From the IMG/VR virus record IMGVR_UViG_3300021279_000020: a DNA stretch of 18,003 bases; one strand, written 5' to 3'. Each line of letters begins with the position of its first letter. Within the stretch, counting starts at the first letter, position 1. The notes beneath the pieces are model-generated. The model ran no database searches. It had not been told where the DNA came from and saw only the letters and a list, made by a program, of their open reading frames with translations. A program made the position numbers and the translations under genes. Origin of the DNA: a virus (lineage: Duplodnaviria > Heunggongvirae > Uroviricota > Caudoviricetes). Positions 1,404 to 18,003 of the stretch are shown here, one piece after another.

Positions 1404-1568
1404 CTAACTACCTGGCATGTCCTTTTTAACCAAAGGAAAAAGCACCACCACAATGCCGACCACCAGCACTCCATCCGCCAGCACCGACATGATCCTGCTG
1501 GTGAAATCCACCATCACCACCAGAAACAGCAGGAGTGCCACAGCGGCCAGACGCAGTTTTACCGTCAC
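1404..1568 (-). CDS. Small hydrophobic protein, 54 aa, two predicted TM helices (VTVKLRLAAVALLLFLVVMVDFTSRIMSVLADGVLVVGIVVVLFPLVKKDMPGS); GTG start overlapping the TerB stop (GTGA)
   Basis: Hand translation of the minus strand. RBS GGAGAA lies 6 nt upstream of GTG at 1568..1566. The stop TAG is at 1406..1404. It is below the 60-aa cutoff of the ORF track. Two hydrophobic stretches are visible. Confidence 0.5.
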   Translation of the reverse strand: MTVKLRLAAVALLLFLVVMVDFTSRIMSVLADGVLVVGIVVVLFPLVKKDMPGS

Positions 1569-1996
1569 AGGTGGTTCTCCAGTCGCAGGCCAAGAACACC
1601 AGCAATCTCTTCCAGAACCTTACGCTCTTCCGGCTCAATTTCACCATCTGCTTCAGCAATGGCCACCGCCACATCCAGCACATCTTCCGCTTCACGCGTA
1701 TCGTGTTTCACATCTTCAATTTCACGCAACGCCGATCGACGACCAATTTTAAAGTTGGTGTCAAGCTGACCTGTGATCGTGGCACTGATGGCATTAATTT
1801 CTGACGTAAACGCGGACAACGCAGGCTGGTTACGCAAGACCTGCTCGATCTTCGCTTTCTCTGAAGCCTCACATTCACCATCTGCATAGGCTACCAGGTA
1901 GGCAGCATTAATAACCGCCTGTGCCAGATCGCGTTTCTCAAACTTTTTAATTTCCGCTGCCGCTCTGCGGGTTTTCTTTTTGAAAATACCAAACAT
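1565..1996 (-). CDS. TerB-domain (tellurite-resistance TerB family) protein, 143 aa; start at ATG 1996 (internal Met of the 167-aa track ORF)
   Basis: Track ORF 1565..2068. RBS AGGAA lies 9 nt upstream of ATG 1996. Two ADG-containing acidic helical repeats (LVAYADGECEASEKAKIEQVL and AIAEADGEIEPEERKVLEEIAGVLGL) are typical of the TerB fold. Confidence 0.8.
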   Translation of the reverse strand: MFGIFKKKTRRAAAEIKKFEKRDLAQAVINAAYLVAYADGECEASEKAKIEQVLRNQPALSAFTSEINAISATITGQLDTNFKIGRRSALREIEDVKHDTREAEDVLDVAVAIAEADGEIEPEERKVLEEIAGVLGLRLENHL

Positions 1997-2128
1997 CGTG
2001 ACGTTCCTTTGGGTGGGTGAGCCAACGCCCGGGAGCGATCTGCCCACAGAGAAAGTCACACTGACCACTCCGTAAGCTCACCCCCGAAAGGCTCTGTGGT
2101 TGATATGCGCCGGGCGTGGCGCGGATAC

Positions 2129-2152
2129 AAAAAAGGCCCGCAAAAGCGAGCC
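2129..2152 (-). terminator. Terminator-like hairpin plus U-tract immediately 3' of the tRNA cluster (GGCUCGC uuuu GCGGGCC UUUUUU on the minus strand)
   Basis: Plus strand shows an A-run at 2129-2134 then GGCCCGCAAAAGCGAGCC; the stem has one G-U pair. Confidence 0.45.
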
Positions 2153-2165
2153 TGGTAAATAAATA

Positions 2166-2242
2166 TGGCGCGTTGTACTGGATTCGAACCAATGACCGAT
2201 TGCTTAGAAGGCAATTGCTCTGTCCGGCTGAGCTAACAACGC
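2166..2242 (-). tRNA. tRNA-Arg (anticodon UCU), 77 nt
   Basis: Reverse complement folds as a canonical cloverleaf: acceptor GCGTTGT/ACAACGC, D-arm GCTC..GAGC, anticodon stem ATTGC/GCAAT with loop CTTCTAA, T-loop GGTTCGAATCC, discriminator G and encoded CCA. Confidence 0.9.
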
Positions 2243-2255
2243 AGTGTACCGATAA

Positions 2256-2332
2256 TGGACCGCCATCGAGGACTCGACCCCCGCGCAACCAGCTTCGAAG
2301 GCTGGCGCTCTGTCCCGATGAGCTAATGGCGG
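2256..2332 (-). tRNA. tRNA-Arg-like (anticodon UCG), 77 nt, non-canonical features (C1:G72 acceptor pair, T-loop GUCGAGU)
   Basis: Reverse complement: acceptor CCGCCAT/ATGGCGG, D-arm GCTC..GAGC, anticodon stem CCAGC/GCTGG with loop CTTCGAA, T-stem CGGGG/CCTCG, encoded CCA. Confidence 0.7.
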
Positions 2333-2341
2333 TATGTGATA

Positions 2342-2417
2342 TGGTGGCCCTTGCTGGATTTGAACCAGCGACCTGGCGATTATGAGTCGCTCGCTCTCAC
2401 CACTGAGCTAAAGGGCC
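2342..2417 (-). tRNA. tRNA with CAU anticodon, most similar in my recollection to tRNA-Ile2 (ileX-like, lysidine-modified), 76 nt
   Basis: Reverse complement GGCCCTTTAGCTCAGTGGTGAGAGCGAGCGACTCATAATCGCCAGGTCGCTGGTTCAAATCCAGCAAGGGCCACCA gives a complete cloverleaf with anticodon loop CTCATAA. Confidence 0.88.
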
Positions 2418-14646: not shown

Positions 14647-16311
14647 ATGAGCACTGATAAAGAAGAATTTTCGCTATATTGCGAAGCAAAAAATGACAAG
14701 GTCAGAAAACGCCTTGGGATTAAAGGGGGTTTTTACTGGACTACAGCAAAAAAATTATCTGTTGCCATCTCACGGTGCGTTGTTGCAATGGACGAGGCAG
14801 GCTACGACGCTGATGATTTCAAAAAACCTGTCCGCGTCCATTTCCCCGTTGTGAATGACCTTCCACCGGAAGGCGTGTTTGATACCGAATTCTGCAACCG
14901 CTATGAAAAAGGCGGGGAAGATGGCATCACAATGATATTTATAGCGCCTTCCCCCTCAGTTCAGGACAAACCAGCCAGCACTGACAATACCAACGTCAAT
15001 GGCGAAGACATGGCTGAGATTGAGGATAATATGCTCCTGCCGATTTCCGGTCAGGAACTGCCCATTCGCTGGCTTGCGCAACATGGCAGCGAAAAACCGG
15101 TAACGCACGTTTCACGGGAAGAACTTCAGGCATTACATATCGCACGAGCTGAAGAACTACCGGCTGTTACTGGCCTGGCTATTTCCCACAACACAAAGCT
15201 GCTCGACCCGCTGGAGATTCGCGACCTTCACAAACTGGTACGCGACACAGACAAAGTTTTCCCTAATCCCGTTAATTCCAGTCTGGGGTTAATGACTGCT
15301 TTTTTCGAAGCATACCTGAACGCTGACTATACCGATCGAGGTCTGCTGACAAAAGAGTGGATGAAAGGAAATCGTGTTTCTCGCATCACCCGCACGGCTT
15401 CCGGTGCAAATGCCGGTGGCGGAAATAAAACGGATCGTAATCCTGATTTAGTACACACCCTCGATACTCTGGATGTGGAGATTGCAGCAGCCACACTTCC
15501 GATGGATTTTAATATTTATGAAATTCCCGTGAGCGTTTATCGTCGCGCAAAAGAAATCGTCCTGAAAAAAGAAAGTCCGTTCAGGGAATGGTCCCCAGCA
15601 CTTCGCGCAACCCCTGGTATCCTGGACTATTCCCGCGCAGCTATTTTTGCACTTATCCGGAGCGCCCACCCTGAGTTTTATCACTACCCGGGACGTCTTC
15701 AGGGGTATATCAATGCCAACCTGACAGAGACCGATCACGAGAATCCCACAGCTGAAACGCTCATGGCTGCCCGGCATACACCGGAAAAAGATATCCTGGA
15801 AGAAATTAACCGCGAGCTGGCTGCTGAGTGCAAAACAGAAGAAGAAAAAAATGATGAAGAAAACCCGCAACCATCTGGCGCAATGGCAGATGAACAGGCA
15901 ACGGCTGAAACAATGGCAGCGGATACAGTTGAACATCATCAGGACCCGCAGCCGCTGGATGACAAGTCACAGGTAAAAGTTACCGCTGAAGAAGTAAATA
16001 AAATTATGGAGGCAGCAGACATCAGTCGACCAGATGCAGACAAATTGCTTGCCGCTTCCCGTGGTGAGTTCGTTGAAGGCATCAGTGACCCTGCCGATCC
16101 GAAGTGGGTTAAGGGGATCCAGAGTCGCGACGCCGAGGACCAGAACCAGCAAGAAACAGAACAGAACGGTCAGAAAGCGGAACAAAACAGCCCAAATGCG
16201 TTACAAAACGAGCCAGAAACGAAACAACCTGAACCAGTCGTGCAACATACCAGGAGACATTCAACGAAGAAAGCCAGGATGAAGCCCGGGAGAAAGATCC
16301 AGAGGAAATGA
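14647..16311 (+). CDS. RecE (exodeoxyribonuclease VIII) N-terminal-region-like protein, 554 aa, with a long acidic low-complexity C-terminal tail; no recognisable nuclease domain
   Basis: Track ORF with SD GAGGT 8 nt upstream. The segment NTNVNGEDM..EIE.NMLLPISGQELPIRWLAQHGSEKPVTHVSR...NADYTDRGLLTKEWMKGNRVS matches my recollection of the non-catalytic N-terminal part of RecE. Unverified. Confidence 0.65.
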   Translation: MSTDKEEFSLYCEAKNDKVRKRLGIKGGFYWTTAKKLSVAISRCVVAMDEAGYDADDFKKPVRVHFPVVNDLPPEGVFDTEFCNRYEKGGEDGITMIFIAPSPSVQDKPASTDNTNVNGEDMAEIEDNMLLPISGQELPIRWLAQHGSEKPVTHVSREELQALHIARAEELPAVTGLAISHNTKLLDPLEIRDLHKLVRDTDKVFPNPVNSSLGLMTAFFEAYLNADYTDRGLLTKEWMKGNRVSRITRTASGANAGGGNKTDRNPDLVHTLDTLDVEIAAATLPMDFNIYEIPVSVYRRAKEIVLKKESPFREWSPALRATPGILDYSRAAIFALIRSAHPEFYHYPGRLQGYINANLTETDHENPTAETLMAARHTPEKDILEEINRELAAECKTEEEKNDEENPQPSGAMADEQATAETMAADTVEHHQDPQPLDDKSQVKVTAEEVNKIMEAADISRPDADKLLAASRGEFVEGISDPADPKWVKGIQSRDAEDQNQQETEQNGQKAEQNSPNALQNEPETKQPEPVVQHTRRHSTKKARMKPGRKIQRK

Positions 16312-17000
16312 AAAGTGCCGTATACCCGAACAAGGAGTGCACCGAAGGCGATCAACATGCCAATGGCAATAATGAAACAGGCGAGACAGCAAATCCCTTA
16401 ATTAAGGTGAGCGGTCATCATGAAAGCACATCCACCAGCAGGTTGTGGCACCATCTGATGATTGACCTTGAAACAATGGGCAAAAATCCTGATGCGCCAA
16501 TAGCCTCAATAGGCGCTGTATTTTTCGATCCACAAACCGGAGAGCAGGGGCCTGAATTCAGCAAAATAATTGATATGGGTACATGTGGCGGCACTGTAGA
16601 CATAAGCACCATCGAATGGTGGCTTCAACGCTCTGGCGAAGCCCGTGCCGCCATTTTAGCTGATCGAATACCGCTTGATGATGCGCTTTTACAATTACGG
16701 GAATTTATAGACGAAAACTCCGGTGAGTTTTTTGTTCAGGTCTGGGGAAATGGAGCCAACTTCGACAACGTGATTTTACGCCGTTCATATGAACGGCAGG
16801 AGATCCCCTGCCCGTGGCGTTACACCAATGATCGCGATGTAAGAACGATGGTCGCTCTGGGGTTGGTGATGGATTTCGATGCCCGCAACGTCACCACATT
16901 TGAGGGTGAACGCCATAATGCCCTGCACGATGCGCGTTACCAGGCAAAATACGTTTCAGTTATCTGGCAAAAACTGTTCCCGAATCAGGCTGATTTTTAA
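16308..17000 (+). CDS. DEDDh-family 3'-5' exonuclease (DnaQ-like), 230 aa; ATG overlapping the upstream stop (ATGA)
   Basis: Track ORF. Exo I motif MIDLETMG, Exo II WGNGANFD and Exo III HNALHDARY. Alternative start at Met51 (16458). Confidence 0.85.
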   Translation: MKSAVYPNKECTEGDQHANGNNETGETANPLIKVSGHHESTSTSRLWHHLMIDLETMGKNPDAPIASIGAVFFDPQTGEQGPEFSKIIDMGTCGGTVDISTIEWWLQRSGEARAAILADRIPLDDALLQLREFIDENSGEFFVQVWGNGANFDNVILRRSYERQEIPCPWRYTNDRDVRTMVALGLVMDFDARNVTTFEGERHNALHDARYQAKYVSVIWQKLFPNQADF

Positions 17001-17070: not shown

Positions 17071-17322
17071 ATGAGTGAAGTAATCATGATTGTCTCTCCC
17101 GGCAAATGGGTATCTGAAGAGCAGTTAATTGCGCTGAAAGGAATAAAAAAAGGAACACTGAAAAAAGCCAGGGAAAAATCATTTATGGAAGGGAGAGAGT
17201 ATAAACATGTCGCTCATGACGGCATGCCGTGGGATAACAGCCCATGTTTTTACAATCTGGAAGAAATTGATCGCTGGATCGAGCGTCAGGCATCGGCAAG
17301 GCCAAGACGTCACCTTGCTTAA
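17071..17322 (+). CDS. Excisionase-like small DNA-binding protein (Xis/DUF1233-like), 83 aa
   Basis: Track ORF immediately upstream of the integrase; small basic protein with EGREY and W motifs. Alternative start ATG 17086. Confidence 0.55.
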   Translation: MSEVIMIVSPGKWVSEEQLIALKGIKKGTLKKAREKSFMEGREYKHVAHDGMPWDNSPCFYNLEEIDRWIERQASARPRRHLA

Positions 17323-17356: not shown

Positions 17357-17893
17357 ATGAAATATCCGACAGGCGTAGAAAAACACGGGGGGACATTACG
17401 CATCTGGTTTGTTTATAAAGGCGTAAGAGTCAGGGAAAACCTCGGTGTCCCTGACACAGTAAAAAACAGACGCATCGCTGGTGAACTACGCGCTTCTGTT
17501 TGTTACGCAATAAAAACGGGGATTTTTGACTACGCAAAACAGTTCCCCTACTCCCACAATCTGGAAAAATTTGGGGAAGCCAGACAAAATTTGACGATAG
17601 GTGAACTGGCCGAAAAATTTCTGGCACTAAAAGAGGCCGAAGTTGCCAGAAGTTCACTCAATACATACCGTGCCGTCATCAAAAATATCCTGAGCATAAT
17701 CGGTGAAAAAAATCTTGCCTCATCGATTAATAAAGAAAAATTACTGGAGGTTCGTAAAGAGTTACTGACTGGATACCAGATCCCCAAAAGTAACTATATT
17801 GTTACACAACCCGGGAGATCGGCTGTTACCGTAAATAATTACATGACAAATCTTAACGCCGTGTTCCAGTTTGGTGGTAAGCGTACAGCCTGA
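17357..17893 (+). pseudogene. Tyrosine integrase N-terminal fragment (arm-binding plus core-binding regions only, 178 aa); the reading frame ends and the catalytic domain is missing
   Basis: Track ORF with N-terminus MKYPTGVEKHGGTLRIWFVYKG typical of integrase arm-binding domains. All three forward frames hit stops within about 30 nt after 17893. Confidence 0.65.
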
Positions 17894-18003
17894 ACCGTCT
17901 GGTCAGAATCTGACGAATTAGACAAAGTGGTGTCCACCAAATAAGTAGTGGGAACCAAAGTGTCAGATATGCAGAAAAATGTGACTCCCGGCAGGCGAAA
18001 AGG

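Follow-up and report, generated by a model that had tools for sequence, protein, structure and literature searches.

The 18,003-nucleotide stretch of DNA analysed here (IMG/VR virus record IMGVR_UViG_3300021279_000020, hereafter the window) ends shortly beyond the 5' part of an integrase gene, and we consider it about 90% probable that this gene was interrupted by ISEc8, a 2,442 bp insertion sequence (IS) of the IS66 family with the gene order tnpA-tnpB-tnpC, which transposed into int of a lambdoid E. coli prophage of the Qin/rspB-site type. ISEc8 lies between nucleotides 520 and 521 of int, in the same orientation as the gene, and the int frame runs five codons into the left inverted repeat before meeting a TGA. 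A known IS disrupting a prophage integrase is a familiar, well-understood kind of event, and analogous IS-split integrases are routinely annotated in RefSeq; the specific insertion site is new to the complete-genome collection that we searched. We propose to annotate the resulting 178-aa ORF as a pseudogene of an integrase that ISEc8 has interrupted. It adds one more case to the IS-driven decay of lambdoid prophages, in which an element without a catalytic integrase of its own is probably locked in place, and the sole point of wider interest is that independent ISEc8 insertions seem to cluster in one short stretch of this gene.

The truncated integrase and its junction with ISEc8

The features at the right end of the window, all on the + strand, are as follows.

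17071-17322, +: excisionase gene (xis), 83 aa, directly upstream of int (ORF listing; DUF1233 found by Pfam on the identical gene in L004)
17357-17893, +: truncated int ORF, 178 aa (ORF listing)
17357-17876, +: 5' part of a lambda-type tyrosine integrase gene, nt 1-520, that is codons 1-173 and the first base of codon 174 (alignment to intact int)
17869-17876, +: predicted 8-bp target GTTTGGTG, the left copy of the expected target-site duplication, taken as the 8 nt immediately preceding the IS
17877-18003, +: left end (127 nt) of an ISEc8-type IS66-family IS, running to the window end (alignment and identity to complete copies)
17877-17898, +: left terminal inverted repeat (IRL) GTAAGCGTACAGCCTGAACCGT, 22 nt
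17891-17893, +: TGA stop of the truncated int ORF, inside IRL
17969-18003, +: first 11 codons (MQKNVTPGRRK) of tnpA, an accessory gene of the IS

An earlier note on this DNA, drawn from its letters and ORFs, had the integrase frame ending at 17893 after about 178 aa and lacking its catalytic domain, and our analysis confirms both points. Pfam places Arm-DNA-bind_2 (PF12167) at residues 4-66 of the 178-aa ORF (E 2.1e-23) and a weak SAM-like core-binding match at residues 80-121, while the catalytic domain PF00589, which carries the active-site residues, is absent from the ORF and from all frames to the window end. The intact homologue is 424 aa long and has Phage_integrase (PF00589) at residues 201-392, with SAM-like domain matches that extend to residues 185-191. 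The break at residue 173 cuts the core-binding domain in its C-terminal part, instead of following that region as had been proposed, and the catalytic domain is wholly lost. All that remains in the 178-aa product is the arm-binding domain with the greater part of the core-binding domain.

The order of arm-binding, SAM-like core-binding and catalytic domains in the intact homologue is that of lambda Int-type recombinases; compared with functional lambda-type integrases, the window ORF has the arm-binding domain but is without the entire catalytic domain. A tyrosine recombinase that lacks its catalytic domain carries out no strand exchange, so the fragment cannot catalyse recombination. This copy of int is presumably non-functional, leaving the prophage unable to excise by its own integrase. 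As in lambda Int-type systems, an excisionase gene lies directly upstream of int, and the homologous gene is annotated as 'excisionase family protein'. The prophage still has xis, yet its excision would presumably require a related integrase supplied in trans.

The breakpoint was located by a megablast search of 17357-18003 against 5,426 complete E. coli genomes and by alignment. Intact int genes (annotated 'site-specific integrase') align with query positions 1-520 and not beyond, with identities of up to 99.8%. The best match, at 99.8% over the 520 nt, is a 1,275-nt gene (424 aa) of E. coli FHI_NMBU_10, which lies downstream of an exonuclease gene and xis and adjoins rspB-rspA. In a four-way alignment of the window, an intact int, the IS-interrupted int of strain EC45 and an unrelated IS insertion in yehR (strain E2865), the window tracks int up to ...CAGTTTGGTG (17876) and then continues as GTAAGCGTACAGCCTGAACCGTCTGG..., and the element-start string in yehR and in the EC45 int comes directly after quite different flanks. 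Because the same string starts there after unrelated flanks, the foreign element begins at 17877 and not at about 17890. The earlier note, which had set the change at the latter position, was right that the sequence beyond it is unrelated to int; the alignment to full-length integrases that it had recommended moves the boundary to 17876/17877, immediately before GTAAGCG, with a left junction that reads CCAGTTTGGTG|GTAAGCGTACAGCC.

Codons 174-178 (GKRTA) and the TGA are IS-derived, and where the intact protein reads ...QFG-VDNSY the window reads ...QFG-GKRTA and stops. The remark that all frames close within about 30 nt was essentially correct: the first + frame stops past the junction are at 17878 (TAA), 17891 (TGA, in the int frame) and 17919 (TAG). 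One + frame reopens at the ATG at 17969, which is the IS gene tnpA, and none of the downstream frames encodes an integrase, which disposes of the idea that the catalytic domain might continue in a shifted frame.

Several lines of evidence identify the inserted DNA. The left inverted repeat starts GTAAGCGTACAGCC... at 17877, and positions 17885-18003 have matches at 100% identity in 3,425 of the 5,426 E. coli genomes. These matches number 1-22 per genome, are both chromosomal and plasmid-borne, and lie under the annotation 'IS66-like element accessory protein TnpA'. Of a complete ISEc8 the window includes just the leading 127 nt, with 0-1 mismatch to the corresponding stretch of six full-length copies (2,442 bp). 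Complete ISEc8-type copies measure 2,442 bp (for example that of EC45, L002 5557-7998) and have 22-nt imperfect terminal inverted repeats, in which GTAAGCGTACAGCCTGAACCGT pairs with ...ACGCTTAC at 82% complementarity (L003, L002). Their three ORFs match HTH_Tnp_1, TnpB_IS66 and DDE_Tnp_IS66/zf-IS66/LZ_Tnp_IS66 in Pfam (DDE_Tnp_IS66 E 6e-106). Of this tnpA-tnpB-tnpC set the window itself contains only the first 11 codons of tnpA, which have the same N-terminus and the same 92-nt offset from the IS end as the annotated TnpA in L002 and L003. GTAAGCG is reportedly a typical terminus of the IS66 family, as Han et al. are said to have described in 2001. The window resembles ISEc8 in E. coli, including STEC O157 prophages, both in this terminus and in a tnpA that lies 92 nt from the end. 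ISEc8 is reported to be an abundant IS in STEC that gives rise to small structural polymorphisms and interrupts genes, stx in O157 among them (PMC10758439; PMC12711010).

In comparison with known ISEc8 insertions, the site in the window (int nt 520, target GTTTGGTG) occurs in 0 of the 5,426 complete E. coli genomes, and megablast did not find the exact left junction in any of them. The junction also had 0 matches in IMG/VR viral contigs and in a one-genome-per-species collection, the latter having a scope that says little.

Simple insertion or rearrangement

Six complete E. coli genomes carry ISEc8 in the same integrase gene, and in each the copy is 2,442 bp long and flanked by a perfect 8-bp duplication, after which the rest of int follows.

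CFSAN004176: int nt 406, duplication TAAAGAAC, same orientation as int, L010 5406/5407
O157:H7 PV15-279: int nt 500, duplication AATCTTAA, same orientation, L008 5499/5500
EC45: int nt 556, duplication GTTTAAGG, same orientation, L002 5556/5557
WCHEC050613: int nt 556, duplication GTTTAAGG, opposite orientation, L012 4056/4057
AHS8C65RI: int nt 577, duplication AAAGGAAT, same orientation, L009 5577/5578
Ec-U5: int nt 927, duplication GAACAGAA, opposite orientation, L013 4427/4428

These six IS-interrupted Qin/rspB-site prophages have in common with the window the gene order dicB ... exonuclease-xis-int, the integrase family (91-93% nucleotide identity) and the IS itself, and rspB follows the remainder of int in four of the six. 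The outcome is also the same, namely an 'Arm DNA-binding domain-containing protein' pseudogene together with a C-terminal int pseudogene. They differ from the window in their insertion sites (406, 500, 556, 556 inverted, 577 and 927, against 520), and the int allele of the window is of a 99% class that is seen intact in FHI_NMBU_10.

We inferred GTTTGGTG to be the target because all six comparator insertions have perfect 8-bp duplications; an 8-bp target duplication has also been reported for IS66 (PMC6778807). A simple insertion would have duplicated GTTTGGTG, so that the right end of the IS would be followed by GTTTGGTG+TTGATAAC... and the rest of int, with a predicted right junction of ...ACGCTTAC|GTTTGGTGTTGATAAC. 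By analogy with the six comparators, in each of which a simple insertion left a perfect 8-bp duplication and spared the 3' part of int, a simple insertion is likely in the window as well. On the strength of this comparison, the DNA some 2.4 kb further on, beyond a complete IS and its GTTTGGTG duplication, would probably comprise the catalytic half of int together with attL and flanking chromosomal DNA.

The most serious competing explanation, although an unlikely one, is an IS-mediated deletion or rearrangement, in which ISEc8 entered int or its vicinity and a later recombination with another copy, or an adjacent deletion, removed or displaced the end of the prophage together with the 3' half of int, such that the right flank would now be unrelated DNA. 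ISEc8 is multi-copy, and its up to 22 places per genome offer substrates for recombination; deletions mediated by IS66 that leave non-matching 8-bp flanks have been documented (PMC6778807); and in CFSAN004176 the int remnant past ISEc8 has been cut again by IS600, which is further decay at the locus. The predicted right junction (...ACGCTTAC+GTTTGGTG+TTGATAA...) had 0 exact matches in JGI metagenome contigs or IMG/VR viral contigs, as a rearrangement would have it, but this is a weak negative, given that these collections may not include the samples with the left junction, and such searches are uninformative on samples that possibly lie outside them. Against a rearrangement stand the six comparators, all of them simple insertions with perfect 8-bp duplications and with the 3' part of int retained. 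The earlier note had envisaged a defective prophage end made by deletion, IS insertion or recombination; the IS insertion is what we find, and an end made by deletion or recombination is not indicated by the data. In the six comparator genomes the catalytic half of int lies intact right after the 2,442-bp IS.

When the post-junction half of the intact integrase was used as a protein query, C-terminal fragment clusters P0006, P0008 and P0001 were recovered. Their N-termini correspond to other alleles and breakpoints, and we rejected them as the missing 3' half.

Contig ends at a repeated element

The exact junction-spanning 178-aa product is present on contigs of four independent datasets, and the length of IS retained after the junction is as follows.

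Window: 127 nt of IS
JGI metagenome 3300028453: 127 nt of IS
ENA ERZ27247011 (MEGAHIT; contig name k141_): 140 nt of IS
Logan SRR26282832: 30 nt of IS
Logan SRR7110579: 29 nt of IS

We take the assembler k-mer sizes to be 127 for the window and the JGI contig (metaSPAdes/SPAdes), 141 for ERZ27247011 (MEGAHIT) and 31 for Logan. The IS length retained on each contig equals k or about k-1 of the respective assembler. Because the IS lengths track k-mer size, unlike what a deletion end would give, the contig ends are best explained as breaks in a multi-copy repeat, and the window presumably stops at 18003 on account of the inability of short-read assemblers to cross a multi-copy IS. Annotation of the window should treat its end as a break of the contig within a repeat, not as a biological boundary of the prophage. 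Contigs that end k or about k-1 nt into an IS offer, more generally, a practical way to recognise repeat-induced ends.

The contigs that share the junction show 0-22 substitutions relative to the window over up to 10.6 kb. That they differ to this extent yet share the junction argues that it is real and carried by a small, diverged lineage. Misjoins can arise in repeats, and the window does end in one, but we regard an assembly chimera or sequencing error, in which int would truly be intact and the junction an artefact or a frameshift hiding its continuation, as extremely improbable: the same junction and 178-aa product occur in four independent datasets with differing assemblers and k and 0-22 SNPs, no frame beyond 17877 encodes integrase, and from there on the DNA matches the IS at 100% identity. 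The agreement of the four datasets on the junction led us to reject this explanation.

Equally remote is an IS3-family insertion with the element starting at TGAACCG, about 17891, a terminus to which the earlier note had drawn attention: the likeness of the 7-mer is genuine, since IS629-like ends in E. coli O157 start TGAACCGCCCCGG, but only these 7 nt are common to both (IS629-like ends read TGAACCGCCCCGG..., the window TGAACCGTCTGG...), int homology already ends at 17876, the heptamer lies 14 nt inside an IS66-type repeat, the 127 nt are identical to IS66-type elements that encode tnpA, tnpB and tnpC, and the gene that follows from 17969 is an IS66-type tnpA and no IS3-type orfA, where an IS3 element would have an orfA/orfB transposase with a programmed -1 frameshift. 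With the termini and the following gene both of IS66 type, the IS3/IS629 identity was rejected.

Clustering of insertions and prophage context

Including the window, there are at least seven independent ISEc8 insertions in this int gene, and five of the seven fall within nt 500-577 (78 nt), in a set that is non-exhaustive and biased to sites at or beyond about nt 400, such that any clustering statistics are informal. The target GTTTAAGG was used twice, in opposite orientations (EC45 and WCHEC050613), by IS copies that differ at 81 positions, and the window's own target GTTTGGTG also starts GTTT. A chimeric query that joined the right end of the IS to int 521-1275 gave only EC45 at the top and missed both AHS8C65RI and O157 PV15-279; because two known insertions were missed, the match ranking is no exhaustive census. 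It is conceivable that int nt 500-577 is a genuine ISEc8 hot spot, which we put forward as a tentative lead and not as a result. If true, the hot spot would expose a target-selection rule for IS66-family elements, and would suggest that rspB-site prophages are commonly locked into the chromosome through recurrent IS knock-out of int.

Further IS copies occur in the related remnants. IS600 lies in the int remnant of CFSAN004176 (L010 7850-9321), an IS629-like element of the IS3 family in the exonuclease gene of O157 PV15-279 (L008 3362-4575), and IS1 copies on both flanks in WCHEC050613 (L012 475-1172 and 7606-7683). These copies indicate a progressive IS-driven decay of this prophage family.

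The window as a whole is a mosaic lambdoid prophage. Genes on the - strand comprise a Q-like antiterminator (DUF1133), rusA, DUF968, a DNA methylase, a tRNA cluster, a TerB-family gene and replication genes, and those on the + strand a cI-like gene, dicB, an exonuclease, xis and int. In the best-matching genomes, 65-75% of the window matches prophages at about 93-97% identity, and many of these matches overlie Stx2 genes. Outside int, the window also departs from the rspB-site comparators in being a mosaic whose early and nin regions resemble those of Stx phages.

One feature of this region is a tRNA cluster downstream of the DNA methylase gene.

2166-2417, -: tRNA cluster Met-CAT, Arg-TCG, Arg-TCT

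The methylase-tRNA arrangement is that which precedes stx in Stx phages; here a TerB-family ORF (1565-2068) follows instead, and there are no stxA/B-sized ORFs in the 1565-2417 (-) region of the window.

The exonuclease region upstream of xis (14647-17000) also differs in its organisation between prophages. In EC45 the exonuclease is a single 823-aa ORF, whereas in the window a 554-aa ORF (Exonuc_VIII) and a 230-aa ORF (Rv2179c-like 3'-5' exoribonuclease) overlap by ATGA at 16308-16311. Agreement between the 554-aa product and the fused 823-aa form is lost after about residue 534, and some 49 aa of the 823-aa form have no counterpart. The split in the window may represent either a pseudogene created by frameshift or deletion or a natural two-gene variant, and the same pair of ORFs is also called in L004-L006.
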